Below, in pieces: positions 31,697 through 62,456 of a stretch of DNA of 64,000 nucleotides (positions within the stretch are counted from its first letter, which is position 1; the number at the start of each line of letters is the position of its first letter). The DNA is taken from assembly GCA_021108075.1 (NCBI GenBank), contig JAIORP010000090.1:15828-79827 (forward strand), in the 5' to 3' direction. The notes beneath the pieces were generated by a model. It was given only the letters and a program-made list of their open reading frames with translations, was not told the DNA's origin and made no database searches. The position numbers were made by a program, and so were the translations under genes. This DNA is from Candidatus Omnitrophota bacterium. Lineage in GTDB: Bacteria; Omnitrophota; Gorgyraeia; Zapsychrales; Zapsychraceae.

Positions 31697-31767
31697 GTTC
31701 TCAATCGTTTCCTTCCATAATTCAAAAGTGAATCTCCTCGCAGCAGAGCTCAGAGGAATTCACTCCA

Positions 31768-36735: not shown

Positions 36736-36758
36736 GCTTACCTCCTAAAAAAACTTCA

Positions 36759-37118
36759 TTAATAGTGTGGCGCCGTATCATCCCAGACGGCATTCATCTC
36801 TGTTGAATGGTAGAAAGAGGGATCTATTTGCCCCAGCGGGCCTCGATAATAGCTGGCAGGATCATAACCCGACAGGCACATCCCAAAAGTAAGATTCCCC
36901 AGGCATAATCCGTAATCCTCAACAACGCTTTGAACGAGCAGCCGATCATGGGCCAATCGGCGTTGAGCCAAATCAATCCCCGTCCAACGCAAGATCATTA
37001 TAATTGAATAAAACATGATAAATAATATAATCATACAAAAAGTAAATTCAATAAGAACCTGAGCAAATTTTTGATGAGTCCTTTTTTTTAGATTTCTTTT
37101 TTGCAAAACTGAAAACAC
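36759..37118 (-). CDS. TadE-like minor pilin/pseudopilin.
   Basis: N-terminus KFA|QVLIEF followed by a hydrophobic helix (TFCMIILFIMFYSIIMIL). Size is 119 aa, and it lies within the Tad locus. Confidence 0.55.
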   Translation of the reverse strand: MFSVLQKRNLKKRTHQKFAQVLIEFTFCMIILFIMFYSIIMILRWTGIDLAQRRLAHDRLLVQSVVEDYGLCLGNLTFGMCLSGYDPASYYRGPLGQIDPSFYHSTEMNAVWDDTAPHY

Positions 37119-37147
37119 GTTAATACACCTTCAGTTGAATAAAACTA

Positions 37148-38620
37148 TTAATAAGTAATATTGACATACGGATCATTTTGCACATCGGTAATCCATTTGC
37201 GGCCTCTTATATCCCGGATCCGACTCCGCACAAAAATGCGCGGATAAATCGGAGGAACCGCGGCCATATCTCCTGCGATATAACAGGTTAAAACCAGATT
37301 ATTGCCGGAAAAACAATCAGGGAGTCCATTGCTACAACCGCCGTGAGGACTACAACAGACTTCAACAGGATTATATCCTGGACGCTCCGGATCAACTTGT
37401 GCCGCAGGAAGATATTCAAAACCCGTTTGGTGCACACAGAAACGACCTGTATCCGCACTAAGCTGAAGAAGCCGCGAGATGACATCAATCTGATCTTTTT
37501 TCTGTGCGTTACGCACAAACTGACGTCCTGGTTGATCTGCCGCGAACAGCTTTCCCTCTTCAATTAAAAGGTAGTGCCCCGGTTCGGTTTTGGTATAAAC
37601 CTGCATGTCACTCTGAAAGCCTGACCGGGGTTTTGTGTCGCTATCATTCACACCCGAATCCCAATCGCCTTCTTGAAAATCTTCAACGTAATAACTTATC
37701 GCCCGCCCCCAACCATCGCTGACCATGCTCCAGACTCGCTCTTGTTTAAGATCTCCATCCAGATCGAGCATAACATTAACCTCTTCAGCGATATTCATCA
37801 ATTCTGCTATATTGAAATTCCGGGTAATCGTACTATTTTTGGTCGAATCCCACCCCCGCACACGGACCCATTGCCAACCAAATTCTGCGCGAAGGGCTGG
37901 ACCAACGACATCGGTGGCTCCATCGCGATCCAGATCAAAACGGTCGTCTTCAGGCAATAAATCAGCGGGACACGAATTCGGGCAAGTTGAGGTAGGCGTT
38001 CCACAACAATATTTTTCACTCGCCCGATGGTTGAAAACCTTCATTGGAAAAAACCGACAACCCGCGGGGCTTTGAGTCGTTATAATAGCTCCTGTTGGAC
38101 TGAATGATGTCGTCGATCGGATCAGACAATTAGGATCCCAGGCGGAATCAGGACCTGTCATTGGAACCGCAATAGTAACATAGTTAGATATTGTTAAAGG
38201 AAAATATTGTCCATTAACAAAAGCATCAATTCGTGCAATGTCTTGCCTGTCATTTCCTTCAATAGCCATAAACAGGTGACGGCTAAAACTAGCGGAGCCG
38301 CTAGCCATGTACGGTGATCTGTTCTTCGAGGCAAATTTTGCGGATGCTCCTGCTAATCGATCTTCAACATAAATTACTGTTGCGCTGTTGCGCGAAGCCA
38401 TCGGCCCTGCCCCCATCATTCCTTCCGAATACATGTACGACTGTTGCAGGGCCATCCGCATCGCTCGAATATGATGATGCTGCCCATAAGATTGATTCAT
38501 AGATTGCTTAACCGTAACGCCGATGACAAAAAGAAGAACCGATCCAAAAACAGCCAATTCTAAAGCTGTTTGTCCCCAACGATTATCTGCTTTTTTTTGT
38601 TTTATATAAATTTGATTCAT
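37148..38620 (-). CDS. TadG-like large pseudopilin (490 aa) with Ca-binding-like D-x-D-x-D-G motifs.
   Basis: N-terminus NRWG|QTALELAVFGSVLLFVIG has Glu at +5 and a hydrophobic helix. Later motifs include FDLDRDGATDVVGP and LDLDGDLKQ. Confidence 0.6.
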   Translation of the reverse strand: MNQIYIKQKKADNRWGQTALELAVFGSVLLFVIGVTVKQSMNQSYGQHHHIRAMRMALQQSYMYSEGMMGAGPMASRNSATVIYVEDRLAGASAKFASKNRSPYMASGSASFSRHLFMAIEGNDRQDIARIDAFVNGQYFPLTISNYVTIAVPMTGPDSAWDPNCLIRSTTSFSPTGAIITTQSPAGCRFFPMKVFNHRASEKYCCGTPTSTCPNSCPADLLPEDDRFDLDRDGATDVVGPALRAEFGWQWVRVRGWDSTKNSTITRNFNIAELMNIAEEVNVMLDLDGDLKQERVWSMVSDGWGRAISYYVEDFQEGDWDSGVNDSDTKPRSGFQSDMQVYTKTEPGHYLLIEEGKLFAADQPGRQFVRNAQKKDQIDVISRLLQLSADTGRFCVHQTGFEYLPAAQVDPERPGYNPVEVCCSPHGGCSNGLPDCFSGNNLVLTCYIAGDMAAVPPIYPRIFVRSRIRDIRGRKWITDVQNDPYVNITY

Positions 38621-38636
38621 GTTAATCTAAAATTGT

Positions 38637-38673
38637 CGGTTCAGCCATGTTCCTGTTCACTGGCTGAACCGAA
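38637..38673. promoter_or_regulatory. Perfect 12-bp inverted repeat with a 13-nt spacer (TCGGTTCAGCCA-N13-TGGCTGAACCGA) in the short gap between the last pilin gene and the TadG-like gene. No flanking T-run. Intercistronic stem-loop or operator.
   Basis: Read directly from the sequence. Lies between the pilin stop at 38679 and the TadG-like start at 38620. Confidence 0.6.
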
Positions 38674-38678
38674 ACAAA

Positions 38679-39002
38679 CTAATAAGAGGCGACCCCTTCG
38701 TAGCCTATTTTTCTTTCCGTGCTGACCGTCATGTCTCGTCGTCGTGACCAATATCCAGTCGGATCATCGACGGTAATTAACTGTGTATTCGTATTATGTT
38801 CTAGCGTGTACAGCAAGGAGGTGTTGCCGAGTCGAGGATCATATTGGTCACCTAATCCGTCGACAGCTGCTTTCCATCGTCCCTGAATGCCTCTTTTGTA
38901 GTAATTGCTGATGCCGACAAACGCGCCCAATAAAATCACAATAATCGACGTGTACTCAAGGACGCTTTGGGCTTTTTTATTCTTTATCAGTCGTTTTAGC
39001 AT
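38679..39002 (-). CDS. Flp/type IVb pilin paralog.
   Basis: N-terminus KKA|QSVLEYTSIIVILLGAFVG. Good RBS (aggaagga) and a TATAAT box upstream on the minus strand. Confidence 0.7.
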   Translation of the reverse strand: MLKRLIKNKKAQSVLEYTSIIVILLGAFVGISNYYKRGIQGRWKAAVDGLGDQYDPRLGNTSLLYTLEHNTNTQLITVDDPTGYWSRRRDMTVSTERKIGYEGVASY

Positions 39003-39067
39003 TCTAATCTTCCTTCCTAAAGCAATTATACTATATTACAATAAATAAATAACATTTACCATAAATA

Positions 39068-39403
39068 TTATCGATCTCGATGTCCCATGTTGATTTTTGC
39101 ATTGGACACCGTGTAGATGGTGTCATCGTAGACGAAATTAAATATTCCCAATCGTTCCATTCGCCGTTTGTTCACCTGCGATCTTCTCGACGTATAGGAA
39201 TGCTCAAGATGCCCTCTCTCGCGTGAAAATTCTTGTTCAGCATTATGCTGATTTCCAATCTGATCGACGACCAAACGAATCATTGTCTGTGTTGACCTTT
39301 TTATGAGCGGAAGCATGGCATACATCAAACCCGTTACAAGAGTTAAGACGACCGTATATTCTAACATTGTTTGTGCTTGATTTTCATATTTTCGTCTTAA
39401 CAT
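39068..39403 (-). CDS. Flp/type IVb pilin paralog.
   Basis: N-terminus NQA|QTMLEYTVVLTLVTGLMYAML. Confidence 0.65.
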   Translation of the reverse strand: MLRRKYENQAQTMLEYTVVLTLVTGLMYAMLPLIKRSTQTMIRLVVDQIGNQHNAEQEFSRERGHLEHSYTSRRSQVNKRRMERLGIFNFVYDDTIYTVSNAKINMGHRDR

Positions 39404-39411
39404 AAATTATT

Positions 39412-39801
39412 TTATTCCCAACGAGCCGTTCCTGGTGCCCCGGTTTCCGATTGAGTGACGCTTGTTTTTGATTCGTCCACAATTTTACGAAAAATCCCTG
39501 TTGTTCCTCCTGGCAATAAACGGGTGTCATGTGTGGCGCGCGCAGCTGAACGTGTTATCACATTTGAATAATAGGGTTCATATTCTGCTCGGTAGAGTTC
39601 CTGTACAATATGGGGGTCAGATCGGTCGACGATAATCGCAAACATGGTGCGTCGAGCATCTTTGAAACGAGCCTGGACCGCACGCTTAAAATAAAAACTG
39701 ATGGCTGTTAACATGGCTAAAAACATTGTTATAAAAATAACATATTCGGTTGACATCGCTTGTGCTTTTTTGTTCCGGATTTTTCTTAACATAACACACA
39801 C
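39412..39801 (-). CDS. Flp/type IVb pilin paralog (atypical spacing of the Glu).
   Basis: N-terminus KKAQAMSTEYVIFITMFLAMLTAISFYF. It lies 8 bp upstream of the next pilin gene. Confidence 0.55.
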   Translation of the reverse strand: MCVMLRKIRNKKAQAMSTEYVIFITMFLAMLTAISFYFKRAVQARFKDARRTMFAIIVDRSDPHIVQELYRAEYEPYYSNVITRSAARATHDTRLLPGGTTGIFRKIVDESKTSVTQSETGAPGTARWE

Positions 39802-40737
39802 TTTTCCTTGATATTACAAGTATAACTGAAAATTTCCTTGCTGACCATATCACATATAATATTATACAGAAAAAAAATAAAAAATAAATAAAATCTTTTT
39901 TTTCATAAGTTTCCTTTTTTAATGTCAATTCAAGGCAGCACACTATCTTGTCCGCTTTCAGCGCTGTTCAAAACTAAAAGACCTGCCTGACATATCCATG
40001 CGAAGTAGTAATCTGATCAAGGGGCCTCTAACGCATTTGCGATTCTTGACTTACTTTGTTACGAAATTTTGTCGTGCGTTGCATCAGCCTGAAAAAATGT
40101 CCCAATAGTTAAACGGAACAACCTATAACGATAATGAATCTCGTCGCGCATGAACCGTCAAAAAAATATTGCTGCCGTGATGATCAAATACTCGTCGACA
40201 AATCAAAAAAATAAAGACGGCCTTATTCAATAATTCATTTAAATTGACAAAATAATCATGCTTAAATCAACACATGATTTAAAGAGAAAACACGTAATGA
40301 TGGAAGACCTGACGGAATAATATTCTCATGCCTTTTTTCGCAGCCAAAAATAAAAACAGAACCCGTTAATATAAAAAGTCGTTAAATAAATATAATCAGC
40401 ACATCTTTATAGGACGACACTATCATCTAACAATCAAAACCGGATCCTGAACAAAGCATGCGATATTGATGGAACAGCAGAGTTCAAACTGTATCACAAT
40501 AAAATCATCTTCCCTAAAATAATAAAGAAATCATCACATTTTTTCTGAGCGATTTTTTCCTTCTGCAAAAAATCATCCTAGCATCACCCACTCACAACAC
40601 GATCCGCTCATTTAAATAGACACAAAAAGTATTGTCACATATAGATTTATAATACTATCGCCTAAATTTAGAAAAGTCGCATTGGACTCTTTAAATGACT
40701 GATTATCGCTCATACAAATACTTTTTTGCGAACACAC

Positions 40738-40773
40738 AAAAGGCTTGTCAGAAAAATCCTGACAAGCCTTTTG
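40738..40773 (-). terminator. Strong rho-independent terminator. A 10-bp GC-rich stem (GGCTTGTCAG/CTGACAAGCC) with a 7-nt loop, flanked by A-run and T-run so it is bidirectional. Lies ~30 nt past the stop of pilin gene 40806..41132.
   Basis: aaaaggcttgtcagaaaaatcctgacaagcctttt read directly. Confidence 0.8.
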
Positions 40774-40805
40774 TTACAACTAACAAAACAACTGTAAGGT
40801 TATTA

Positions 40806-41132
40806 TTAACCCCAGAATTCTTGTTGAACGTTGATGATAAATTCATTCAATAGAGTGTTAGTTACTTCTGCGCCAGTCAATGTTGATGTTGTAACACCAG
40901 TAGTGAACGAATCTAAAGTAGTACTAATTGTCGATGTCTGAACTCTTACGTTTGTGTTACCACTGGAGAATTGGTCTCCAATGTCATCAGCAGCACTTTT
41001 AAATCGTCCTTGCAAGCCTCTTTTTATGTATACTTGAATGGACAATAAAGCACCAATGATAATGATAATGAGAACAGCGTATTCAAGGGTGCTTTGCCCT
41101 TTTTGTCTTTTTTTGTTTAAATACTTAAACAT
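40806..41132 (-). CDS. Flp/type IVb pilin paralog.
   Basis: N-terminus QKG|QSTLEYAVLIIIIIGALLSIQ. RBS aggagga. Confidence 0.7.
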   Translation of the reverse strand: MFKYLNKKRQKGQSTLEYAVLIIIIIGALLSIQVYIKRGLQGRFKSAADDIGDQFSSGNTNVRVQTSTISTTLDSFTTGVTTSTLTGAEVTNTLLNEFIINVQQEFWG

Positions 41133-41192
41133 TAGTCTTTCCTCCTGATAAAAGTTTATATCTATAGAATCATAGAATTAGAAAGTCTTAAA

Positions 41193-41561
41193 TTACCAAT
41201 CTTCACCCGCACCAACTTGTGAGTTGTAAAGGGATGTTTGATAACCAGCAGATTGTCTCGTTCTTTCATTGTCTGCCAAGTGTCTTGCACCATATATAAC
41301 TTGGTCATCCAACTCTTTAACATCCACGTCTTGTCTACTAATAGAATAGTTTGATTGCAAGTAGTATGGTTCGTACTGCATTGTAGTACCCATATCAGTT
41401 GTGGAATCTGACATGAACTTTGCTGCATCTTTCACGCGAGCTTGCAAAGCTCTTTGTGCATATGTTTGCATCGCAATAATACCTGCAACAACGAGAGAAA
41501 TCAAAATAGCATATTCAGCGGTATTTTGCGCTTTTTTATTTTTAAAAAGTTTCTTAAACAT
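41193..41561 (-). CDS. Flp/type IVb pilin paralog.
   Basis: N-terminus KKA|QNTAEYAILISLVVAGIIAMQ. RBS aggagga. Confidence 0.7.
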   Translation of the reverse strand: MFKKLFKNKKAQNTAEYAILISLVVAGIIAMQTYAQRALQARVKDAAKFMSDSTTDMGTTMQYEPYYLQSNYSISRQDVDVKELDDQVIYGARHLADNERTRQSAGYQTSLYNSQVGAGEDW

Positions 41562-41622
41562 TTATTTTCCTCCTAAAGTTACTATCAATAAATAATTTCC
41601 ATAATGATAACTGTAAAATAAA

Positions 41623-41826
41623 TTATCGAGAACCTGATAATCTATTAGCCATTTTTGACATGCCATTGGTACCAGTTAAAAGCGTAGTGTTAAATGCAGT
41701 TTGAAAGACACCACCACTGGCAAGGAAAATCAAAAGGGCGGCGATTACAGCAGCGAACAAAATAATGTATTCTACCGTACTCTGTCCTTTTTTCTTTTTT
41801 GATTTCATGATATTTCTTTTGAGCAT
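41623..41826 (-). CDS. Flp/type IVb pilin paralog (67 aa).
   Basis: N-terminus KKG|QSTVEYIILFAAVIAALLIF. RBS aaggagga. Confidence 0.7.
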   Translation of the reverse strand: MLKRNIMKSKKKKGQSTVEYIILFAAVIAALLIFLASGGVFQTAFNTTLLTGTNGMSKMANRLSGSR

Positions 41827-41892
41827 TATTATCCTCCTTAAACATATAACTTAACTTTACCCCAATAAAACATTCTTCTTCTTGAAGAACAT

Positions 41893-42063
41893 TTATTCTG
41901 CTGTGAATTCATTTTGAATCATCTGTTGCGTTGCCTGAACCGAACGATACACATAAGTACCCATTGCTATAACTGCAGAAGATATAATAGCTGCGACTAT
42001 GGCATATTCAATTAAATGTTGTCCCTTTTGTCTTTTTATTTTTTTTTGTTTAATTGACATCAT
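41893..42063 (-). CDS. Flp/type IVb pilin paralog (56 aa, below the track's size cut-off).
   Basis: Hand translation of the minus strand gives MMSIKQKKIKRQKG|QHLIEYAIVAAIISSAVIAMGTYVYRSVQATQQMIQNEFTAE*. Confidence 0.6.
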   Translation of the reverse strand: MMSIKQKKIKRQKGQHLIEYAIVAAIISSAVIAMGTYVYRSVQATQQMIQNEFTAE

Positions 42064-42349: not shown

Positions 42350-44374
42350 TCAAAAATCAATAAATAACAACTTATTTTCCTGCGTCTTGATATGAGCGGC
42401 ATTAAGTCTTTGGCAGGCTTGTCGCAGTAATTTAGAATTTTCACAAACTCTTGATTCGCAAAGGTTTACGTTTACTTCATTGTCTGTCTTGCAAAATTTA
42501 CCCCGCAGGGACAACAAGGCGGCAAACGCATCTTCCCATTCTTCATTGGAAAGATATTTAAAATATAAATCTGGAAAAAATCTTTTCAATGTATATAAAA
42601 TAAGATCCTGCGCATAACTTTCAATCAAACTGATCACTCCTTGATCCATGGAAGCCATATCAAATGAAGCTTCCGGCATCTCGCAATTGTCCTCTTTTCG
42701 CCCATAGCCTACGTCTAAGTCGATCTGAGCAAAATTTCGCCAGCTACATAGATAAGAAAAAAGCACATCCTCCGTCTCTTGAGATAAATCATTCGTAATT
42801 AATGTACAGATTTCTTTATCCCTCTTTTCATTCCAAATACTAATGCCTTTTAATATAAAACTCACTTCTTCTCCGTTCTTCTCTGATATTGGAATCAATC
42901 CTTCCTTATAATAAAAAACCTCATCGTAGGCATTGTGATAAATAGCCTTAAAATCTCCCCTATTAAGCATTGCGAGTCCTTCTTGATACTGACAAACATA
43001 CGGCAGAGAAGAGCCGGGTTCTATCTGACCCTTCACATTTAAAAACATTCTGCTTTTCTGCTTGGGGTTTATTCCAATAACAACTCGCCTTTTCATCCTA
43101 GGAAAAACATCAAATGTTGCTAAAGGTTGCTGATTACTGCTGCAGATATTTATTTGCTTCACTTCTTGCGTTGAAACAGAGAAAAAAACCTTTAAAAAAG
43201 AATGGAGATGAGGGACATCGACATCTAACGAAGAAACATAAAAAACGTCCTGGTTACTGATAATATATTTTGTAACATCCTCAATTGATTTTAATAAAGT
43301 GCTTGTATTAATTGGGGGGGGAGCTGTGTGGACTGTAAATTGACTAAAATTAATGAAATATTTCGTGCCATCTACCAAGTTAAGCTCAACAAAGGCCGTT
43401 CCTAAAAAAACTTCCCTTTTACGCATTTTATATTCAAAAAGAATTTGTTCGGATATTTGTTGCTGATTAAGCGTGGCCCACTCCCGATTCAGGTCGACCT
43501 CTTTATAATTTAAAATACATTGAAATAATTCTGTCTGAGCGGAAACGAATGACATGGTGTCTTCCAGGCTATCAAGAAACACCCTTTGCTTTATGACCTT
43601 AAGCATCGTAAGCAGAGAGAGGGCATCCGGTAAATTCTTGGACCATAAACGAGACGTGCTTTGAAACAACTCTTGCCAAAAGGCACCTCGATTTAATTCC
43701 CATTCAGCAGCTCGAACAAAAACCATTCCCATGTTGGGAAAAACTGGGGACATCCTTTGTTCATATTCACGTTTTAATGTGCGAACATATTGTAAAAATT
43801 CCTGATGTTTCTTTTCACGCCAGAAAGGATTTTGTTTCGAATCCTTTAACCTCATTTTTCTATCCGGAATATGCGGTTCCTTTTTAGAAATGACGGGTAT
43901 CGCCTCTTCCCGTCTCTGTTCCAGCTCGTGTGTCCCATCCCCTTTAAACTGTTGCTCTGCCAGTAGAAGTTTATCAATTTCTTTTTTCAAGTCAGGCCTC
44001 TTCTTTATTCGGATGCTGTTCCTGTCTACGGATATATTTGAAGGTAAACTTTTAAAGAGCTGATTCTTTTTCTGTTCCGGGATAATAAACTTCAGTTCTT
44101 TTGGTGCATTCTTTTTTTGAAAACGTCTGCCGACCTGATTGCTTAATAGCGCTTTTTTGAGTATGGTATTAACAGAGGATTTGGATATTTTTATTTCAAA
44201 TTCCTTGCTCGCTAGTTCCGCTAACGCACGGCAACCGGAGGAAGGATTTTCTTTTTTAGCGTTGACAATATAGTCAACAACTTCTTTTTTTAATTTGTGA
44301 ATGACTCCCATAAATATATGATCAAAAATTTTTATTTTATAAAAATTATTAATGGTTTTATTGCATACAATCAA
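42350..44374 (-). CDS. 674-aa Lys-rich hypothetical protein with an N-terminal helix-turn-helix resembling transposase/Psq-type HTH. Function unknown; possible regulator or domesticated transposase.
   Basis: ...VDYIVNAKKENPSSGCRALAELASKEFEIKISKSSVNTILKKA... near the N-terminus. No TM segments, and no other motif I recognise. Confidence 0.4.
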   Translation of the reverse strand: MIVCNKTINNFYKIKIFDHIFMGVIHKLKKEVVDYIVNAKKENPSSGCRALAELASKEFEIKISKSSVNTILKKALLSNQVGRRFQKKNAPKELKFIIPEQKKNQLFKSLPSNISVDRNSIRIKKRPDLKKEIDKLLLAEQQFKGDGTHELEQRREEAIPVISKKEPHIPDRKMRLKDSKQNPFWREKKHQEFLQYVRTLKREYEQRMSPVFPNMGMVFVRAAEWELNRGAFWQELFQSTSRLWSKNLPDALSLLTMLKVIKQRVFLDSLEDTMSFVSAQTELFQCILNYKEVDLNREWATLNQQQISEQILFEYKMRKREVFLGTAFVELNLVDGTKYFINFSQFTVHTAPPPINTSTLLKSIEDVTKYIISNQDVFYVSSLDVDVPHLHSFLKVFFSVSTQEVKQINICSSNQQPLATFDVFPRMKRRVVIGINPKQKSRMFLNVKGQIEPGSSLPYVCQYQEGLAMLNRGDFKAIYHNAYDEVFYYKEGLIPISEKNGEEVSFILKGISIWNEKRDKEICTLITNDLSQETEDVLFSYLCSWRNFAQIDLDVGYGRKEDNCEMPEASFDMASMDQGVISLIESYAQDLILYTLKRFFPDLYFKYLSNEEWEDAFAALLSLRGKFCKTDNEVNVNLCESRVCENSKLLRQACQRLNAAHIKTQENKLLFIDF

Positions 44375-44426: not shown

Positions 44427-44768
44427 TCAAGAAATGTCTAATTCGTCATCGACTGAAACACCTTTTTGGGCTATCTTGCCACTGGGCAACTCAATACAAT
44501 AACTTGATTTTGAGTAAATACGGCTCATTCTCCACGGTTTAATGTTTTCAAGCAAGCCAACGACTTTGTGATTCTTGGAAACAAAAATCACATCAATAGC
44601 AAATCGCATAAAAAACATATGAATGGAATTGCAACGGGTGATGACCAGCCCTTCGTCGTCACTTAAAGACAATCGACTCATAAGCCCGATCAGCCGCGAA
44701 AAAAATGAATCGGCCATGCGCACATTGCTAGCAATGATACTGTTTTTCGTTTTATTCTTGACGATCAA
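44427..44768 (-). CDS. DUF192/UPF0127-like small protein.
   Basis: 113 aa with ...RLIGLMSR...ITRCNSIHMFFMRFAIDVIFVSKNHKVVGLLENIKPW...IELPSGKIAQKGVSVDDEL, matching the conserved CxxIHTfFM.fpIDvvFlD pattern of the family. Confidence 0.5.
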   Translation of the reverse strand: MIVKNKTKNSIIASNVRMADSFFSRLIGLMSRLSLSDDEGLVITRCNSIHMFFMRFAIDVIFVSKNHKVVGLLENIKPWRMSRIYSKSSYCIELPSGKIAQKGVSVDDELDIS

Positions 44769-44862: not shown

Positions 44863-47046
44863 TTAATGCTTATATCCTGAAGAAAACATCTCTTTATCCA
44901 AGACAATCCCTTTTTTAGCAAACTCGTCATAAAAGGTTGGCAAATTTCCTACTGAAACAAACTCACCTACAACCTTCCCGTCGTCACTTATTCCTGTTTG
45001 ATTAAAAAGAAAAATATCCGCTAATTTCAAGTGAAACTCTTCATCAAGGTGGAGGGTTTCGGAGATACCCGTTATCTTTCTTGTCCCGTCAGAGAAACGG
45101 TTCACGTGGACAATAACATCAATGGCGCTAGCAATCATTTCATTGATAGCGCGCACAGGCAACTCAATCCCACTCAATAAAATCATGGCGTGCATACGGG
45201 TCATAACGTCTGACGTCGAATTAGCGTGTAGTGTTGTCAAAGAACCGTCGTGCCCGGTGTTCATAGCTTGTAACATGTCTAAAACCTCACCGCCGCGACA
45301 CTCACCAATAACAATTCGGTCCGGACGCATACGTAAACTGTTCGTAAACAAATCCCTAATTGTGATCTCCCCTTTACCTTCCACGTTTTTCGGGCGAGAT
45401 TCAAGACGAGCCCAATGAATCTTTTTTAGTCTTAATTCGGCCGCATCTTCAATGGTAATAATTCGTTCATCGTCTGGGATAAATTCCGAAATGATATTCA
45501 ACAGCGTGGTCTTACCCGAGCCTGTTCCACCGGAGACAATCATATTTTTACGGGCGAGAACACATGCCTGTAAAAAATCTCCCATAACCTTCGACAAACT
45601 GCTGTATCTCTCAAGAAGCTGTCTTAATTCCAAACGTTCAACACCAAATTTTCTAATTGTAATCATTGGACCATTCAATGACAGCGGGGGAATAATCGCA
45701 TTAACACGAGAACCGTCGGGTAAACGGGCATCCACCATGGGGGTTGATTCATCAATCCGGCGGCCAAGCGGGGCGATAATACGGTCAATAATGGCACGTA
45801 ATTTTTGATCAGAAATAAATCTTTTATTCGTTAAGAATATTTTTCCATTTTTTTCAACATAAATCTGATTTCGGTTATTAACCATGATATCGGTCACATC
45901 ACCATCAGCCAAAAAATCCTCCAAGGGGCCTAAGCCTAAAGCTTCATTGATGATGTCGCGCACTAATCTTCGACGTTCATCATGGGCAACAATCCGTCCT
46001 CCCGCTTCCTCCATCAACAAATTCGACACAACTTTCTCTGACAACTTCTTAACCTCTTTAACCGTCTGTTCATCTGTTAAAGCGTCCAAGCGGATCCCTT
46101 CCATATTCAATCGTTCAACCAAACGCTCATGGACCTTCTGCTTAATAGCGATAATTTCATCCTCGGCAGAAGAGAATGCCGCCTCACCAGAACCGGGCGT
46201 TTCCATTTGACGGGAAATACCAAATTTCTCCCAGAACTGACTCTGTTGTGATGTTATCCCATCAGTCGTTCTCTGCCGCTCGATATCCGTTGTTTGGACA
46301 AAAACATCTTTCGTCTTAAACAAATTAACCAATCTGAAAAAAGCATCAGAGACCTTGGATTTGGGACTGTCAATCACACAGGGAACGCCTTGGTTTAATG
46401 CCATCCCAACGGCTTTACCATCTGAAGGGATATGGCTGATAATCTCACACGTCAGAGCAGACCGGACTTCTTGCCACGCCACGCTTCCCCGGCTTTCAGA
46501 GCGGTTTAAAACGAGTTTTACCATTTTATTTGGAAATTGGAGGCTTTGAAGGACTTCCATACACCATTTGATTTGATAAACAGCTAAAATATCTGGTGTA
46601 GCGATAAGCATAATAAGGTTAGAATAATCAAAAATCGTAATGAGTGTCTCGCTAAAAGATTTTCCCGTGTCAATCACAATGTATTCATAACACTTTGCAG
46701 CATTTTTTAGAAACGGTTTAAGATTATCCGGGGATATATGTCCTATCTCTTTTGTATTTTTTACGGCAGGAATAAAATGAAATCCGCTAGAGTGAGAAAC
46801 AACGTAACTTTGTATCACTTCCGGTTCTGTTGTTTCATCAACTTGTGCAAATGAATCAGCTATCGATTTTCGAGGGGAAAGGTTAAGCATTCGGGCCATA
46901 TCTTGTCCCGCTTGAAAGTCTAAATCAATCAATAAAACTTTATAGCCTGCAAGCGCTAACGCTGTCCCTAAATTGACAGCCACAAATGTTTTACCGACAC
47001 CACCTTTATTACTAAATATAGAAATTGTTTTAGCGTTCATATACAC
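44863..47046 (-). CDS. cpaF: Fusion of a CpaE/TadZ-like MinD/ParA-family ATPase domain (N-terminal) with a CpaF/TadA secretion ATPase (C-terminal).
   Basis: N-terminus ISIFSNKGGVGKTFVAVNLGTALALAGYKVLLIDLDFQAGQD (deviant Walker A of ParA/MinD). C-terminal half has ...VSGGTGSGKTTLLN...IEDAAEL...RMRPDRIVIGECRGGEVLDMLQAMNTGHDGSLTTLHANS (VirB11/CpaF family). 727 aa. Confidence 0.8.
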   Translation of the reverse strand: MYMNAKTISIFSNKGGVGKTFVAVNLGTALALAGYKVLLIDLDFQAGQDMARMLNLSPRKSIADSFAQVDETTEPEVIQSYVVSHSSGFHFIPAVKNTKEIGHISPDNLKPFLKNAAKCYEYIVIDTGKSFSETLITIFDYSNLIMLIATPDILAVYQIKWCMEVLQSLQFPNKMVKLVLNRSESRGSVAWQEVRSALTCEIISHIPSDGKAVGMALNQGVPCVIDSPKSKVSDAFFRLVNLFKTKDVFVQTTDIERQRTTDGITSQQSQFWEKFGISRQMETPGSGEAAFSSAEDEIIAIKQKVHERLVERLNMEGIRLDALTDEQTVKEVKKLSEKVVSNLLMEEAGGRIVAHDERRRLVRDIINEALGLGPLEDFLADGDVTDIMVNNRNQIYVEKNGKIFLTNKRFISDQKLRAIIDRIIAPLGRRIDESTPMVDARLPDGSRVNAIIPPLSLNGPMITIRKFGVERLELRQLLERYSSLSKVMGDFLQACVLARKNMIVSGGTGSGKTTLLNIISEFIPDDERIITIEDAAELRLKKIHWARLESRPKNVEGKGEITIRDLFTNSLRMRPDRIVIGECRGGEVLDMLQAMNTGHDGSLTTLHANSTSDVMTRMHAMILLSGIELPVRAINEMIASAIDVIVHVNRFSDGTRKITGISETLHLDEEFHLKLADIFLFNQTGISDDGKVVGEFVSVGNLPTFYDEFAKKGIVLDKEMFSSGYKH

Positions 47047-47115: not shown

Positions 47116-48792
47116 CTAATTTTTTGCAAAATTAAAAACGACTGGTATTGTAACACTAATCTCTTGCAGCTCTGTATCAGCCGGAAACTTTTCATATGGG
47201 GCCAATTCTTTAGCAGCATCCAAAGCGGTTACATCAAAGGTTTCATAGCCAGATGATTCTTCTACCAAAGCATATGCTAGTGTACCATCGCTTAGGATGA
47301 GCAGCTCCATCTTAACGATCCCTTGCCAGCCATATTCTTGGGCTTCTGATGGGTAAGCTATCGATCCCATGATCTTTTCTTGGAGACCCTGCACATAAGA
47401 CGCCATCTCTTTTGGAATGTTCGACAAATCAACAGCCGGTGGCTGCTCGTCCATGCCTTCCTCCATGATGGGCTCTTTTACCCCGAACATATCATCAATA
47501 TATTCTTGCCGAGGAGCGCCTAGGTTCTTTTGAGAAGTTAAAATTGTCGGAACCAAGGTGATAACAAGTTCTTGATCTAGTTCTGGAACCGGGTTTGATC
47601 TATTTGTAAAGATCGTTCCAAGCAAAGGAATGCTACTCAAAAATGGAACTTTTCGTATCGTTTCACTATCATTGTGCTTAATTAAACCAGCGAGCAAGAC
47701 ATTTTGTCCGTCGTCCAACAAAAGACTTGTTTCAGCATTACGGCTCGTAAAACCAACATCATCTCCAACCTGGACAGATGCGTCAACATCGCTGACCTCA
47801 ATGTTTAATCTAATATCAATTTTGTTATTTCTAACTATCTTAGGTGTAATATTCATAGATACACCATAAGATTTGAAGGTGACATTTTCCTGAACTTGTC
47901 CGGAACTACTTGCCGTTGTTGTTCGTATCGGAATCTCGCCACCGACTAAAAATGCGGCCTGTTCCCCGCTCTTAACGACTAATTTAGGACGTGATAGAAC
48001 CCGGCCCTTCCCTTCTTCAATCAACGCGTTAATAATGGATTGCAAACCATTTTGGCGCGTAAAATCTCCGATTTTAAACCAATCACCAGGAGATCCATCA
48101 AAAGAAGGAAGTGCTTCTGCGTAATTGAAAACTAAAGTAGGGCTTGCATCGCCTGTTCCCTGCGATGCCCATGAAATACCAATATTTCTTGAAACAGTTG
48201 TGTTTAATTCAGCAATTTGCATATCGATTTGAATGAGACTCGCTTGATCTTCCTCTTCACTCAAATTTATAATTTCTTCCGAGAATGGTGCTACAATTTT
48301 ATCAAATTGCGACCGTCTATCTTCGTTAACATAACCTGTAATAATAACTTTACCTTCTTTGCCATTAATTTCTAAATTAATTGTATCAATTTGAGCTGAT
48401 TCCAATAATTTTTCAATTCGTTTTTGTACGAAATCTAAATTTTGGGTAAGGACATTAACCATTATTGTTCGTTTACCATTTTCATCCCAAATAAAAAGGG
48501 CTGTCTTTCCCATCGAACGGGAAATAAGCAAAAGGCTGACATCATCAGCATCAACAATATCAACAATTGTCGGATCAGCGATTGAAACGCGTGTCATGCT
48601 ATAGACTCTAACCGCAACCAGTTCACCAATAATCATGTTAATCTCGTCATTTTCCATTGAATCAATTAACATGCCATCATCGATGGCATCAGCATTCGTC
48701 GCTATTAAAGCTATTCCCATGACCATAACCCCTAACAATAAACCTAAACTTTTCGGCATTTGACTCATTTTTATAATTATTCTACTTAGCAT
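47116..48792 (-). CDS. cpaC: Secretin (CpaC/RcpA-like) with a C-terminal TonB_C-like domain.
   Basis: Signal-peptide-like N-terminus. Secretin core ...LVVKSGEQAAFLVGGEIPIRTTT...VTFKSYGVSMNITPKIV...SLLLDDGQNVLLAGLI...VPFLSSIPLLGTIF... The C-terminus is ...IAYPSEAQEYGWQGIVKMELLILSDGTLAYALVEESSGYETFDVTALDAAKELAPYEKFP...TIPVVFNF, matching the TonB C-terminal pattern YP..A...G.eG.V.v.f.I..dG.v....v..SSG...LD.aAl.A.....f.P....v.IpI.F. Confidence 0.75.
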   Translation of the reverse strand: MLSRIIIKMSQMPKSLGLLLGVMVMGIALIATNADAIDDGMLIDSMENDEINMIIGELVAVRVYSMTRVSIADPTIVDIVDADDVSLLLISRSMGKTALFIWDENGKRTIMVNVLTQNLDFVQKRIEKLLESAQIDTINLEINGKEGKVIITGYVNEDRRSQFDKIVAPFSEEIINLSEEEDQASLIQIDMQIAELNTTVSRNIGISWASQGTGDASPTLVFNYAEALPSFDGSPGDWFKIGDFTRQNGLQSIINALIEEGKGRVLSRPKLVVKSGEQAAFLVGGEIPIRTTTASSSGQVQENVTFKSYGVSMNITPKIVRNNKIDIRLNIEVSDVDASVQVGDDVGFTSRNAETSLLLDDGQNVLLAGLIKHNDSETIRKVPFLSSIPLLGTIFTNRSNPVPELDQELVITLVPTILTSQKNLGAPRQEYIDDMFGVKEPIMEEGMDEQPPAVDLSNIPKEMASYVQGLQEKIMGSIAYPSEAQEYGWQGIVKMELLILSDGTLAYALVEESSGYETFDVTALDAAKELAPYEKFPADTELQEISVTIPVVFNFAKN

Positions 48793-48795
48793 AAT

Positions 48796-49665
48796 TTACA
48801 ATTCTCTCCCTCCTCGAAAGATTTGAATAAAGGGTTTCCCTTCTTCCGTTTCCTCATCAATCGACGTAATAACTGGTTTCTTCTGTTTCGGTAACATTAA
48901 CTCTGTGCCCTGATGCTCTAAAACAAAATCTGCTAGGGATTCCCAGGAAGCAACTTGTAGGTTCCATGTTTCCTTTTCAGCTGGAGCTCTTAAAGATAAT
49001 TGCAATTGTCCATTCTGTTGTGCAAAGCTCATTAAACCGACTTCTTCGGGCGTAAGCGCTAGCGTAATATTCAATGATCGAGTTTTTGATTGTGCTTCGT
49101 ATTGAGGGGCTTTACCTGCCATCTGAAAATTCGTGCCAACAGCTAAGACCTGTATATTTTGAAATAAAATTGTTGTAACGGTATCCGTTTCACTCGTATC
49201 AACACCTCGACCTGGTACTTCCAGGTGAGACAAAACATCAACAAAGTCACCCGGGCTAATGAGACCGCCAACAGCTGACAACGAATCAATCATGATTGTT
49301 AAAGCCCGCTTTCCTGGAGGTGTTTTAACAGAAAATGAATTCATCTCAACAACAGGGTCTTTTTTCGGAGCTTTTCCTCCTGGTCCACCAGGCTGAGAGG
49401 GTAAATTTGCCACCATCATTTGTTGTTGTTCTTGTTTCTTTCTTAAATCTTCCTGTTGCGCAACAACTTGCCTCATTTGCTTTTTGACGAGTTCTAACTC
49501 TCCAATTAAAGCGGCATTCTTTTTTTGATAATCTTTTGCCATGTCTTTCGCTTGACCTTTAATACTAGATTGGACATAGTGGCTGGTTAAAAACGTTGCA
49601 ACCAAACCCAGGCCTATTGCAAGCGAAATAGAAGCAAATTGCTTTTTGTTCTCAATGTTCATCAT
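48796..49665 (-). CDS. cpaB: CpaB/RcpC-like Flp pilus assembly protein.
   Basis: N-terminal TM segment. Contains PPGKRALTIMIDSLSAVGGLISPGDFVDVL, characteristic of CpaB. Lies immediately upstream of the secretin with a 3-bp gap. Confidence 0.65.
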   Translation of the reverse strand: MMNIENKKQFASISLAIGLGLVATFLTSHYVQSSIKGQAKDMAKDYQKKNAALIGELELVKKQMRQVVAQQEDLRKKQEQQQMMVANLPSQPGGPGGKAPKKDPVVEMNSFSVKTPPGKRALTIMIDSLSAVGGLISPGDFVDVLSHLEVPGRGVDTSETDTVTTILFQNIQVLAVGTNFQMAGKAPQYEAQSKTRSLNITLALTPEEVGLMSFAQQNGQLQLSLRAPAEKETWNLQVASWESLADFVLEHQGTELMLPKQKKPVITSIDEETEEGKPFIQIFRGGREL

Positions 49666-49685: not shown

Positions 49686-50642
49686 CTAATTTAGTAAATC
49701 TTCGTTTAAGTCAACCTTAGTTTTTTCCCTTAACGTGTCAATATGATCTATGATAATTGTCTGTTGCTTCTCAGTCAACATACGCACTTTTATATCTTGT
49801 TTAATTTCATCGAAAGGAACAACCTCTCCTCCCCGCTTTGCTTCCAGCTTAATGATGTAATAACCTTCAGGCCCTTTAAAAATGCTGCTAACCTCGCCAA
49901 CTTTCAATTTTAATATTTCTTCTCCCATCTCAAGAAAGGGCTCCCTAGTTAGAAAACCTAAATCACCACCTTTGTCTGCACTTTTTCCAACAGAGTGTTG
50001 TTTTGCCGTCTGCAAAAAACTTTCTCCCTTTAAAAGCAAAGTCAGTATTTCTGACGCCTTTAACTTGTCATTAAGGACAATTTCTCGAACCCGATATTCG
50101 ACGGGTGAAGTGAGTTTATCCATATTATCATTGTAAAAATTCAAAACATCCTTATCAGTAACTTCAATACTTTCCGTGAGCTTTCTTGCCATTTCGCGCA
50201 CAATCAACGTTCTTTCAAATTCAGTGACAGCCAATCGAATATCTCGATCTTGATCAAGGCCGATTTCTTTCGCAGATTGGACAAGAAGCTGTTGACGAAC
50301 CAATTCATCTAGGACTAATTTCCGAGCGTCCTTATTTTCAATATCATAGTCAGGAACAACTTCTTTTAAGGCAAGCAATCGTTCTTTAAATTCATCGACT
50401 GACATAGACCAATCACCAACAGTAACTAACGCATCTTCTACTGGTACTTGTGGTTTAATCGCTGCTTGTGATCCTGTGGGAGGTGTTATTTGTTTTTGAG
50501 GGGCAGGTTTTACAACGGAAGTTTCCTCTGGCGATATTGTGTCTGATGCAGATTTAACCATATCACATCCTGTTAAAACAAAATTTGTTGATAGTATAAG
50601 CGAAAAAATATAAAGAAAGATTGTAGTTTTCTTGTTTTTCAA
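49686..50642 (-). CDS. Parvulin-type peptidyl-prolyl cis-trans isomerase lipoprotein (SurA/PrsA-like).
   Basis: Lipobox LTGC near the N-terminus. PpiC domain ...AKQHSVGKSADKGGDLGFLTREPFLEMGEEILKLKVGEVSSIFKGPEGYYIIKLE. Preceded by a TATACT -10-like box and an aaaggag RBS. Confidence 0.7.
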   Translation of the reverse strand: MKNKKTTIFLYIFSLILSTNFVLTGCDMVKSASDTISPEETSVVKPAPQKQITPPTGSQAAIKPQVPVEDALVTVGDWSMSVDEFKERLLALKEVVPDYDIENKDARKLVLDELVRQQLLVQSAKEIGLDQDRDIRLAVTEFERTLIVREMARKLTESIEVTDKDVLNFYNDNMDKLTSPVEYRVREIVLNDKLKASEILTLLLKGESFLQTAKQHSVGKSADKGGDLGFLTREPFLEMGEEILKLKVGEVSSIFKGPEGYYIIKLEAKRGGEVVPFDEIKQDIKVRMLTEKQQTIIIDHIDTLREKTKVDLNEDLLN

Positions 50643-54046: not shown

Positions 54047-54120
54047 CGACCCCAGCGGGATTCGAACCCGCGTCGCGAGCTTGAAAAGCTCGTGTCCTGA
54101 CCAGACTAGACGATGGGGTC
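54047..54120 (-). tRNA. tRNA-Glu (anticodon UUC); no CCA encoded.
   Basis: The minus strand reads GACCCCATCGTCTAGTCTGGTCAGGACACGAGCTTTTCAAGCTCGCGACGCGGGTTCGAATCCCGCTGGGGTCG. It has a 7-bp acceptor stem, D arm GTCT/GGAC, anticodon stem CGAGC/GCTCG with loop TTTTCAA (UUC), and T arm GCGGG-TTCGAAT-CCCGC. Confidence 0.85.
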
Positions 54121-54234: not shown

Positions 54235-56688
54235 TTATTCTTCTTTCGCGACAACATTCGCGATAGAACTCACTTCATCATTAGCGCTTAAATTAATCAA
54301 ACGAACGCCCTGAGCACTCCGCCCTGTTTGACGAATTTCCTGCGGAGAACAACGCACAATCATGCCTTTCTTGGTAACGGTCATCAGTTCATCTTCTGGC
54401 ATAATGGGTAAAGCCCCGACAACCAGACCGTTTCGGTTTGTAACTTTAACGTTAATAATCCCCTTTCCTCCTCGTGATTGTGTTCGATATGCAGCAAAAT
54501 CAGATCTTTTTGCATAACCTAACGTTGTCACGGTTATCAATGTGCTTCCCGTCTTAGAAACATCCGGAGGAAAGACTAGCATGCTAACAACAATATCCCC
54601 TTTCGCTAAATTAATACCTTTAACGCCTCGAGCTGCTCGGCCCATGTCTCTCGCCTGCTTTTCATTAAAACGCAAAGATTTCCCCGACCGGGTTGCCAAT
54701 AAAATATCATATTTACCGTTGCTAATCGACGTTCCGATCAACTTATCACCCTTATCGAGGTTTATGCCGACGATGCCTCCCTTTCGAGGGTTGCTAAAAG
54801 CCGATAGTTTTGTTTTCTTTATGTTGCCATTTGACGTCGCCATGACAACAAACTGGTTATCAGAAAACTCCTTAACCGCTACAATCGAACTAATTTCTTC
54901 ATCTTTTTTAAACGAAGCAAGCAAATTAACAATATTTTTCCCTTTAGCGCTTCTAGACGCGACCGGTATTTCATAAACCTTAAGCCAGCGTACAATTCCC
55001 TTGCTCGAAAAAATTAAAAGATAATCTTTCGAAGAAGCAACAAAAACCTGTTTCACAAAATCTTCTTCCCGGGTTGTCATCGCTGAAACACCTTTGCCGC
55101 CTCTGCGTTGTTTGCGATAGGAAGACACGGCTAAACGTTTAATATACGCATTGTTGCTGATTGTTATCGCCATGCATTCTTCAGCAATAAGATCTTCAAT
55201 CTCAATTTCTTCCGCCTTGGCGGCAATTTCTGTTCGCCTCTCGTCACCGAACTTTTTCTTTATGGCGTTTAAGTCTTCTTTTATAATGGCTTCTATTTTC
55301 ATCTCTGAGGCTAGTATTGCGCGGTAGCTTTCAATGTCTTTTAACAAAGCTTTATATTCCTGGTCGATTTTAGTTCTTTCTAAAGCCGTCAACCGCTGCA
55401 GTTGCATTTCTAAAATTGATTGCGATTGAATCTCCGACAAATTAAATTTTTTCATCAGATTAACTTTTGCTATTTGCGTTGATTTCGACTCCCTGATTGT
55501 TTTAATAATTTGATCAATATGATCAAGCGCAATTTTTAACCCTTCCAATATATGGGCCCGTCTTAAGGCTTTATCTAAATCAAATTGTGTGCGTCGTCGA
55601 ATAACCGAGCGACGATGGTTCACAAACAACATTAAAATTTGTTTTAAGCTCAAAACTTTTGGACTATTATTGACTAATGCCAAATTAATAATTCCAAAAG
55701 TAATTTCCATCTGGGTGTGTTTATACAAATAATTCAGGACGATTTGCGGCTCTGTGTCTCGTTTTAATTCAATAACAACACGAATACCGTCCTTGTCGGA
55801 TTCATCGCGGATATCAGAAACGCCTTCAAGTTTCTTTTGGTTAACCATCGACGCTATAGCCTTAACAAGATTTGCTTTGTTAACTTGATACGGTACTTCC
55901 GTAATAATAATCGTATCTTTACTGCCTTTTTGTCGCTCTATATTTGCTTTGGCCCGAACAGTTAGCTTGCCTCTTCCCGTGTTATAGGCACTCACGATTC
56001 CTTCGCGTCCACAAATAATACCAGCGGTTGGAAAATCAGGTCCCTTAATATACCGCATCAATTGTTTTGGTGTCGCATCTGGATTATCAATCAAAAAATT
56101 TATCCCATCTACAACCTCACCTAAATTATGCGGTGGCATGTTTGTCGCCATACCAACGGCAATACCACTGGACCCATTAATTAATAAATTAGGTAAAACA
56201 GCAGGTAATACTGTCGGTTCGTTTTTTGTTCCATCAAAATTCGAAGAAAAATCGACTGTTTGTTTGTCTATGTCGGCCAGCAACTGGGCAGAAATGGCGG
56301 ATAAACGCGCTTCAGTATAACGATACGCTGCCGCGCTATCACCGTCAATAGACCCAAAATTTCCCTGCCCGTTGATCAGTGGATAACGCAAAGAGAACTC
56401 CTGGACCATTCGGACCAACGTATCATAAACAGCCATGTCGCCGTGTGGATGATACTTGCCCAACACTTCTCCGACGATGGTTGCGCACTTTTTGAATGGT
56501 TTTCCGTAATCAAGACCCAATTCCTTCATCGCAAATAAAATTCGTCGATGAACAGGTTTTAACCCATCACGAACATCGGGCAACGCTCGACCGACAATTA
56601 CACTCATTGAATAAGACAAATAAGACTTCTTCATTTCTTCTTCAATATTAACAGGAAATATCTTCTCTTGAGCTGTTAATTCTCTCAT
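54235..56688 (-). CDS. gyrA: DNA gyrase subunit A.
   Basis: 817 aa with ...[34 protein letters not shown]...[11 protein letters not shown].... Confidence 0.95.
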
Positions 56689-56737
56689 TTTGTTACAATA
56701 CCTTTCTTTTCTAATAACTGAAAAACCAAATAATTAA

Positions 56738-59481
<2,744 letters not shown>

Positions 59482-59484
59482 TTT

Positions 59485-60573: not shown

Positions 60574-60640
60574 GTGTTATTAACTCCGTGACGATTAGCT
60601 ATTTTTTGGGAACTAAAATAGTCGTAGTTATAATAGGACA

Positions 60641-60710
60641 TGTGAATAATTTGAATAAGAACAAAAAGTATTGAAAAATAATGGGTTATGACATTTTTGC
60701 CTGTGAATAA
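60641..60710. promoter_or_regulatory. Two DnaA-box-like 9-mers (TGTGAATAA, the reverse complement of TTATTCACA) in the dnaA-dnaN intergenic region, a second origin module.
   Basis: Located at 60641-60649 and 60702-60710. Confidence 0.5.
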
Positions 60711-60729
60711 GTTTTGCATTAATGATGAA

Positions 60730-62064: not shown

Positions 62065-62456
62065 ATCTCTATGATTCTGAATGATTTATAAATGTCTCAA
62101 ATTTATTCACAATTTATCCAACGTTGTGGAAAAAATGTGAATAAGTATTTTATCAATGCCTTTACGACGGGAAAAGATGCCAGAAATAAGTAAATTAAAA
62201 ATGAATGTTATATTATAGCAAACAGAAAAATTATTTCAAATCAAATTTTTCCATAATATAAAAACATTGCATAACAATGACTTCCAAACCAACAAGAATT
62301 TATTTAAAAAAAAATGGTTTTGAATCATCACTATCAGCCAAAAATAGGTGTTTTTTTTATAATACAATAGAGGAGAATAAGTTTTATTCCTAAGTGAAAA
62401 AAATAATACCTTAAAATTCTTGACTAACAAAAGTCCTATGATATAATTGTCGAATC
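62065..62456. promoter_or_regulatory. oriC region. AT-rich dnaA-rpmH intergenic region with a cluster of DnaA-box-like 9-mers at 62103-62144 (TTATTCACA, TTATCCAAC, TGTGGAAAA, TGTGAATAA).
   Basis: Read directly. Flanked by divergent dnaA (minus) and rpmH (plus). Confidence 0.8.
62420..62448 (+). promoter_or_regulatory. Consensus sigma70 promoter TTGACT-17-TATAAT. The TATAAT ends only 8 nt before the rpmH ATG, so the mRNA would be leaderless or near-leaderless.
   Basis: ttcTTGACTaacaaaagtcctatgatTATAATtgtcgaatcATG. Confidence 0.55.

Follow-up and report, generated by a model that had tools for sequence, protein, structure and literature searches.

The 64,000-nucleotide stretch of contig JAIORP010000090.1 analyzed here (positions 15,828 to 79,827 of the contig, Candidatus Omnitrophota assembly GCA_021108075.1; referred to as the window) carries, at 47116..48792 on the minus strand, a gene whose product is almost certainly the outer membrane secretin of a Tad/Flp pilus, with a true TonB-type domain attached to its end by a flexible tether. 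This high confidence covers the identity and the architecture of the protein. For the reading as a whole, which blends these with a mechanism in which the TonB-type domain acts as a periplasmic hook, we put our confidence only slightly above even. A preliminary description, made from the DNA letters and a list of open reading frames (ORFs), had already proposed a secretin with a C-terminal TonB_C-like domain, and the profile searches, structure predictions and structural comparisons reported here bear this out.

The secretin ORF begins with ATG and runs unbroken through 558 codons, including the stop codon; its translation contains the C-terminal peptide quoted in the preliminary description, and its Pfam and NCBIfam matches place it with the Tad-type secretins of the RcpA/CpaC class. 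All of its parts are given here with their window coordinates on the minus strand. Residues 1 to 36 (48685..48792) form a signal-peptide-like N terminus, recognized by sequence inspection and in the full-length structural model from a hydrophobic helix (residues 15 to 32) and an A-x-A motif, ADA, that ends at residue 36. Next comes a pil_N domain, typical of RcpA/CpaC, at residues 49 to 114 (48451..48648; Pfam PF13629, T2SS-T3SS_pil_N, 5.4e-10), where the model places beta strands over residues 50 to 115 with a predicted local distance difference test score (pLDDT) of >90. Residues 119 to 176 (48265..48438) are predicted to be an N1-like alpha/beta ring-building domain, given the secondary structure of the model (pLDDT >90) and a weak BON-like match in one relative. 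The secretin beta-barrel and gate region spans residues 186 to 418 (47539..48237), with the Pfam Secretin domain (PF00263) at residues 256 to 418 (7.2e-40). In sequence searches of the PDB this part matched 8jvb (4.7e-32) and Pseudomonas aeruginosa RcpA, 8odn (6.1e-27), and Foldseek searches with the secretin part of the full-length model returned solved secretins, including those of A. caldus (8jvb/9wfd) and RcpA (8odn). Every NCBIfam secretin equivalog model matched partially, none at its own cutoff. Residues 419 to 458 (47419..47538) constitute a poorly conserved, low-complexity tether rich in Ala, Glu, Ser, Lys and Pro, which is predicted to be disordered (pLDDT <50 at residues 422 to 449), and residues 459 to 555 (47128..47418) form the TonB C-terminal domain, which is complete and has an additional helix at its N terminus, as indicated by Pfam, hidden Markov model (HMM) and Foldseek searches, the structural model and conservation. 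No AMIN, LysM, SPOR or OmpA_C domain was found in the protein by Pfam at E ≤ 0.01.

The preliminary description had suggested an HMM search of the C terminus against TonB_C and a superposition on the TonB fold, and both gave positive results. Pfam TonB_C (PF03544) matches residues 479 to 554 at 5.3e-15, with 56.1 bits against a cutoff of 24.6 and coverage of model positions 4 to 78 of 79, so that all three Pfam matches of the secretin (pil_N, Secretin and TonB_C) exceed their gathering scores; NCBIfam TIGR01352 (tonB_Cterm) matches at 2e-11. An AlphaFold model of residues 455 to 558, built from an alignment of 31 family members, has a mean pLDDT of 91.6 and the topology helix (461 to 477), short helix (482 to 487), two strands (491 to 500 and 505 to 512), helix (517 to 530) and strand (544 to 553), with the chain ending five residues past the last strand. 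When this model was searched against the PDB with Foldseek, the top 25 matches were exclusively TonB or TolA C-terminal domains. The best TonB matches overall have template modeling (TM) scores by target of 0.7 to 0.78 and root mean square deviations (rmsd) of 1.7 to 2.4 Å; among them, the C-terminal domain of Helicobacter pylori TonB (5lw8/6sly) has a TM score by target of 0.74 to 0.77 at an rmsd of 2.2 to 2.4 Å, and the TonB chains of receptor complexes 9dc4_T, 6i97_D, 2gsk_B and 2grx_C superpose at 1.7 to 2.4 Å. A profile of the module searched against the PDB matched the H. pylori domain along the full length at 1.8e-11, the extra N-terminal helix (also present in HasB) included. The domain matches as a whole greatly exceed what chance would produce. 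Besides their fold, the module and the TonB C-terminal domains of H. pylori, Escherichia coli (2gsk/2grx) and P. aeruginosa (6i97) share the motifs YP, G-x-V, DG, SSG..FD and IPI-x-Y. The TonB_C fold is also present, at residues 461 to 553, in the AlphaFold model of the full-length secretin (pLDDT of 81; predicted TM score [pTM] of 0.48).

The preliminary description had named a missed stop or a frameshift joining two genes as what would undo its claim. We consider such an artefact, or a chimeric assembly joining a secretin to a tonB gene, practically impossible, because the single-ORF fusion is conserved in 48 of 49 related genomes: the frame is unbroken, and the fusion recurs in these independent species-level assemblies and in hundreds of independent metagenomic clusters. 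Nor does the segment resemble a separate tonB gene joined by accident, as it has neither the N-terminal anchor of TonB nor the context of a start codon. The sole thing that might suggest such a join is the NCBI product name “TonB family protein.”

To survey related secretins for the same extension, as had also been suggested, we used three collections, and the fusion was found throughout. Among the 120 best homologues in a collection of 5.8 billion proteins, all 120 share the pil_N-Secretin-TonB_C architecture by Pfam, and the named ones are proteins of Omnitrophica/Omnitrophota metagenome-assembled genomes, with the product names “TonB family protein” at NCBI and “pilus assembly protein CpaC” at the Joint Genome Institute. 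A scan of one genome per GTDB species, with patterns taken from the TonB_C module alone, yielded 71 loci, of which the 49 closest were analyzed; the genome of the window itself is absent from these species representatives, and the best match reaches 61%. The module shares an open frame with the secretin in 48 of these 49 loci, the sole exception being truncated by a contig end. Finally, in order to avoid a bias from the module, the secretin part only (residues 40 to 420) was searched against a library of 1.84 billion representatives of 50%-identity clusters, which yielded 374 of them at E ≤ 1e-30. Of the 150 best, 133 contain the TonB_C domain once or twice, down to 29% identity, and the remaining 17 are mostly fragments, two of which have full-length fused cluster mates. 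In a sample of 30 distant representatives, every named member is from Omnitrophota, bar one probably misbinned sequence. The boundary of the fusion lies at ∼30 to 33% identity, where the CpaC protein of Selenihalanaerobacter shriftii (446 amino acids), the nearest named relative outside the phylum, has no module; one 420-amino-acid Omnitrophota paralogue also has none.

Judging from these surveys, the secretin-TonB_C fusion is the norm across Omnitrophota rather than an oddity, and it is under strong purifying selection across the phylum. The claim of the preliminary description that a TonB_C domain is unusual on the outer membrane channel of a pilus system holds for characterized secretins, since our PDB searches gave no solved secretin with a TonB_C domain and the nearest named outside relative lacks it, but does not hold within Omnitrophota. 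Other taxon names do occur, in that 17 related loci are labeled “uncultured Planctomycetales,” one fused cluster member is labeled Hydrothermarchaeota and one fusion of TonB_C to a TolC-like channel is labeled Patescibacteria; these are probably submitter labels or binning errors. A single gene order is common to the 49 loci: nitrilase, malate dehydrogenase, a SurA/peptidyl-prolyl isomerase (PPIase)-like protein, CpaB, secretin-TonB_C, a TadZ-TadA fusion, a DUF192 protein, an HTH-like protein of ∼670 amino acids and Flp pilins. A highly divergent fused member, P0240, keeps the cassette (PPIase, RcpC, secretin-TonB_C, TadZ/TadA fusion, HTH-like protein and small pilin-like genes) despite having other genes upstream of it. 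The fusion is therefore old and has been kept vertically in the Tad cassette of Omnitrophota.

Within the proteins, conservation is concentrated on both sides of the tether. In an alignment of the 120 best homologues and the query, the mean frequency of the most common residue per column is 0.71 in the TonB_C module and 0.72 in the Secretin domain, compared to 0.22 in the linker, whose length ranges from 30 to 136 residues across the family (∼40 in the window copy) and whose composition includes 7.6% Pro. A minority of proteins have two tandem TonB_C domains (16 of the 262 retrieved proteins and 9 of the 49 genomic loci, or ∼6 to 18%). Tandem copies are 51% identical within one protein, compared to 50% and 48% for copies at the same position of different proteins and 43% across positions.

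TonB C-terminal domains normally sit on an inner membrane energy transducer. The preliminary description had considered a coupling of the secretin to an Exb/Tol-like system, which we find poorly supported. TonB and TolA engage their motors through an N-terminal membrane helix (PMC12204202). Sequence inspection of the secretin N terminus revealed no S-x3-H motif, no His and no TonB-type membrane anchor, and the secretin domains come directly after it. A domain scan of the ORFs found no ExbB, ExbD, TolQ/R, free TonB or TonB-dependent receptor in the 64-kb window, and no exbB, exbD, tolQ, tolR or TonB-dependent receptor gene lies in the ∼6-kb flanks of the 49 related loci, where other conserved genes take up all the space. 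Since it has no TonB membrane anchor and no ExbB/ExbD partner gene nearby, the protein is not a TonB and is predicted not to be an energy transducer. The NCBI name “TonB family protein” is therefore misleading, as the N terminus is of the signal type, the spacer is not proline rich and no motor genes are near; unlike in TonB, the module is located at the C terminus of an outer membrane channel instead of behind an inner membrane anchor.

In such a coupling of energy or signals, the TonB_C domain, tethered to the outer membrane, would engage an ExbBD-, TolQR- or Poc-type motor or a TonB-dependent receptor, such that gating or pilus function depends on the proton motive force. There is a precedent for a TonB-type protein tied functionally to a type IV pilus machine, in that PocAB-TonB3 is needed for the production and placement of type IVa pili in P. 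aeruginosa, where a contact of TonB with PilQ's N0 domain has been suggested (PMC5285504). However, TonB3 is a separate, inner membrane-anchored protein with its own ExbBD-like motor and not a domain of the secretin. A protein fixed in the outer membrane cannot pass on an inner membrane force via its C-terminal domain alone, and together with the missing motor-binding helix and the missing motor and receptor genes this makes such a coupling very unlikely.

Our preferred reading, which we hold tentatively and with less than even confidence, is that the TonB_C domain of the secretin serves as a tethered, strand-capturing hook in the periplasm that docks, positions or helps assemble the channel. 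It draws on a comparison with RcpA/CpaC and TadD of P. aeruginosa (8odn). Both secretins have a pil_N domain and a secretin barrel, and both genes lie beside rcpC/cpaB, tadZ, tadA, tadB/C and flp. They differ at the C terminus: RcpA (416 amino acids) has a short unstructured S-domain tail that binds the tetratricopeptide repeat (TPR) lipoprotein TadD, by way of its last 4 residues (PMC10499894), whereas the protein studied here has a 40-amino-acid tether and a 97-amino-acid folded TonB_C domain. Such a pilotin-binding tail is a feature of the P. aeruginosa/Aggregatibacter type and not of all secretins. The loci differ as well: in the window, TadZ and TadA form one protein, the cassette starts with a SurA/PPIase-like gene and TadD is missing from the locus; a Pfam scan found no TPR/TadD-like pilotin among the proteins of the locus or window. 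The TonB_C domain and tether occupy the place of the pilotin-binding S-domain of RcpA, in a system without TadD in the locus. An extension past the secretin barrel is also known from the GspD/PulD secretins of type II secretion systems, where the S-domain mediates a protein contact (with the pilotins AspS and PulS) for outer membrane assembly; these S-domains are short stretches of helix or coil with a lipoprotein as their ligand, in contrast to the autonomous 97-residue globular domain found here, with its long tether and occasional duplication.

Secretin C termini lie on the periplasmic side, at the outer membrane rim. In the assembled channel of ∼13 to 15 subunits, the modules would therefore form a tethered periplasmic crown that surrounds the barrel at its base. 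Beta-strand addition is the way in which the C-terminal domains of TonB and TolA bind their targets (PMC12204202), and each module may likewise capture an exposed beta strand of a periplasmic or envelope partner. The module model retains all secondary structure elements for strand addition, with the chain stopping right after the last strand, and the linker has the traits of a tether (disordered, variable in length and of low complexity) in front of a module that is tandemly duplicated in some family members.

The module is not confined to secretins. A second family combines a signal peptide, an N-terminal TonB_C domain, a long linker and a TolC-like channel of the outer membrane efflux protein type, and was found in loci L050 to L052 and L072 of the genome scan (L050, 5914..7848; L051, 5911..7782; L072, 7735..9744). 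Among 93 homologues of this family, ∼88 have both domains, and the named ones are almost all from Omnitrophota. One member lies upstream of a resistance-nodulation-division (RND; ACR_tran) transporter, beside a large gene of >2,300 codons, while the neighbors in L050 and L051 have no Pfam match. Both fusions thus combine, in the same phylum, an acidic module and a long linker with the outer membrane channel of a trans-envelope machine, but in the second the module is N terminal and the channel is a TolC-family trimer associated with an RND transporter. The occurrence of a similar TonB_C module on two unrelated outer membrane channels suggests that a Tad-specific protein is a less likely partner than a general component of the envelope or some class of adaptors in the periplasm.

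A generic envelope ligand of this kind would also suit a cell wall anchor, which the preliminary description had put forward as one role of the domain: the modules would hold the secretin on the sacculus by binding peptidoglycan, for the load of pilus retraction or for localization, much like the two to three N-terminal AMIN repeats of PilQ. The PilQ secretins of type IVa pili have accessory modules in the periplasm, on flexible linkers and in varying number, and their AMIN domains, which have been demonstrated to bind peptidoglycan, vary in number among species and anchor and localize the channel (PMC5285504). Copy number (one or two) and tether length vary in the Tad secretins as in repeat-type wall anchors, a tether of 30 to 136 residues should be able to reach the wall layer, and the protein has no match to AMIN, LysM, SPOR or OmpA_C. 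The AMIN fold, however, is unrelated and N terminal, unlike the C-terminal, TonB-type module described here, and no recognized peptidoglycan-binding motif was detected in the secretin. The module is moreover acidic while peptidoglycan is anionic, though the envelope proteins of this lineage are acidic in general. To our knowledge, peptidoglycan binding is not an established property of TonB C-terminal domains, apart from one older proposal. Taken together, we regard a wall anchor as unlikely.

The module lies where RcpA and GspD have the S-domain that controls their pilotin-dependent assembly (PMC10499894), and this location and the missing TadD in the locus can also be read in favor of a built-in aid to assembly or oligomerization. 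The modules would then pair with each other or with the secretin N-domains and stabilize the ring or, in a variant, serve within the molecule as a chaperone or for targeting, which would free the secretin from the need for a pilotin. Tandem copies could pair within one protein, and the dimeric crystal form of the TonB C-terminal domain (1u07) is among the structural matches; TonB C-terminal fragments can form strand-exchanged dimers. On the other hand, the monomer model has the canonical closed, monomeric fold, and the model shows no docking on the N-domains. A chaperone function could be supplied by the conserved SurA/PPIase-type gene of the cassette. This explanation would also leave the TolC-like fusion unexplained, since TolC trimers need no pilotin. 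Considering both variants jointly, we find an assembly aid quite improbable.

The hook itself faces four points that weigh against it. The full-length AlphaFold model, with its pTM of 0.48, docks the module on no other domain of its own chain. The gene for a TadD-like pilotin could lie beyond the window. The TonB_C domains of secretins and TolC-like fusions are just 36 to 39% identical, so that the two families may have different partners. Finally, the charge of the module may just reflect a lineage-wide trait of acidic envelope proteins. The fused modules have a median isoelectric point (pI) of 5.0 (n = 229; pI of 4.15 and net charge of −10 in the window copy), as opposed to 9.9 for the basic free TonB C-terminal domains from the same genome scan (n = 19), but the secretin body (pI of 4.5) and the PPIase (pI of 5.0) are about as acidic as the module. 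For this reason, the acidity of the module is weak evidence and a poor discriminator between a protein partner and peptidoglycan.

The gene 3 nucleotides upstream of the secretin gene (48796..49665, minus strand; syntenic in 45 of 49 loci) encodes a CpaB/RcpC homologue, the component of the periplasmic alignment ring (Pfam RcpC, 1.6e-25; TIGR03177, 3.6e-30), which covers just the C-terminal two-thirds of the CpaB model. Between its membrane helix and its RcpC domain lies a Lys-rich, coiled-coil-like segment (residues ∼36 to 110). This membrane-proximal region is the sole basic periplasmic segment in the cassette, with a median charge of +4 (+8 in the window copy), and we treat it as a lead rather than a result regarding the partner of the module. 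In P. aeruginosa, RcpC/CpaB docks on the N-domain of RcpA and not on its C terminus (PMC12307814). The first gene of the cassette (49686..50642, minus strand; 20 nucleotides upstream of cpaB and syntenic in 43 of 49 loci) encodes a periplasmic chaperone-like protein of the SurA-N/PPIase type (Pfam Rotamase_2, 1.6e-14; SurA_N_3). The window copy has a lipobox-like LTGC motif, and a simple regular expression found a lipobox in 15 of 42 orthologues. The gene stays with the cassette in the divergent locus P0240 despite the different upstream genes. The protein is a candidate for a dedicated chaperone or a substitute for the pilotin.

The secretin gene belongs to a complete Tad/Flp locus at 29.4 to 50.6 kb on the minus strand, with cpaB/rcpC, tadZ, tadA/cpaF, tadB, tadC and flp pilins all on the strand of the secretin. 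Downstream of the secretin follows a fusion of TadZ (ParA/MinD-like) and TadA/CpaF (T2SSE ATPase) of 727 amino acids (44863..47046), assigned by Pfam and NCBIfam, which aligns as a single high-scoring segment pair over both halves in 44 of 46 related loci as well as in P0240. A hairpin after this gene (44834-44810, minus strand) was the sole meaningful-looking site in a scan for promoters and terminators, which was otherwise near background (21 sites versus 17.7 expected). The DUF192 protein (44427..44768) and a 674-amino-acid HTH-like protein with a weak HTH_Tnp_Tc3_2 match (42350..44374) are cassette members in 44 and 39 of the 49 loci, respectively. They are followed by at least nine Flp/pseudopilin-like genes (31358..42063), recognized in the ORF lists by N-terminal motifs of the G/xxxxEY type, many of which are much longer than an ordinary Flp (56 to 129 amino acids). 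Two proteins in this array, of 490 and 1655 amino acids, have pilin-like N-terminal segments and no Pfam match. The platform genes tadB and tadC (30388..31245 and 29470..30366), identified by Pfam T2SSF, complete the locus; all of these genes are on the minus strand.

Directly downstream of the Tad locus, a giant ORF (2..26002, minus strand) of >8,667 codons extends beyond the start of the window, with a Peptidase_C39 match within its first 1000 residues. Its position agrees with published work in which giant genes of Omnitrophota are associated with loci for pili and secretion. Between the giant gene and tadC lie an ORF with DUF1016_N and staphylococcal nuclease domains (26879..27751, minus strand) and a low-GC (36 to 38%) stretch of ∼1.6 kb (27800..29400) with no long ORF and no Rfam match. 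On the other side of the locus, gyrA, gyrB, dnaN and dnaA are consecutive at 54238..62085 (minus strand), with yidC on the opposite strand at 62863, suggesting that the Tad locus lies near a probable replication origin. The sole Rfam match of the window is one tRNA (54047..54120, minus strand).

A secretin-TonB_C fusion was described in none of the papers found by our full-text literature searches. Seymour et al. (2023) analyze the RcpA of Omnitrophota, with no mention of TonB, and a 2026 preprint (10.64898/2026.06.07.730766) counts genes with TonB C-terminal domains flanking giant genes without recognizing the secretin; these flanking genes may encode the protein described here. The fusion is likewise not mentioned in the giant-gene papers, in a large comparative study of type IV filaments or in a recent paper on TonB/TolA evolution. 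While its components and the Tad machine are known, their combination and its conservation throughout the phylum are undescribed, the architecture being visible, though uninterpreted, in automatic database annotation. The name “TonB family protein” at NCBI covers both these secretins and the TolC-like fusions, an annotation problem that the present finding corrects.

Secretins and TonB have both been studied intensively, yet no characterized secretin carries a TonB domain, so the fusion would surprise a specialist in either field, although it does not yet resolve a long-standing question. It bears on how Tad secretins assemble and stay in place without a TadD pilotin. Members of the Omnitrophota, an uncultivated phylum, are believed to be ultra-small and to live as predators or epibionts that depend on their Tad pili. 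That a TolC-like channel carries the same module points to a way of docking outer membrane channels that is shared across the lineage. A more speculative idea, which we consider doubtful, is that Omnitrophota organize their envelope in a manner not described before, having moved TonB-type domains from the inner membrane transducer onto outer membrane channels (the Tad secretin and the TolC-like duct) as “reverse TonB” hooks for Ton-box-like strands of periplasmic or inner membrane partners. If this is true, such hooks would physically link the outer membrane channels of trans-envelope machines with other parts of the envelope, and in these putative predators or epibionts the Tad pilus could gain, while attaching to prey, a connection that bears load and possibly responds to the energy state of the cell. 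Being a single soluble domain of 100 residues, the module offers a concrete, testable handle on the envelope biology of Omnitrophota and on TonB-type domains outside Ton systems.

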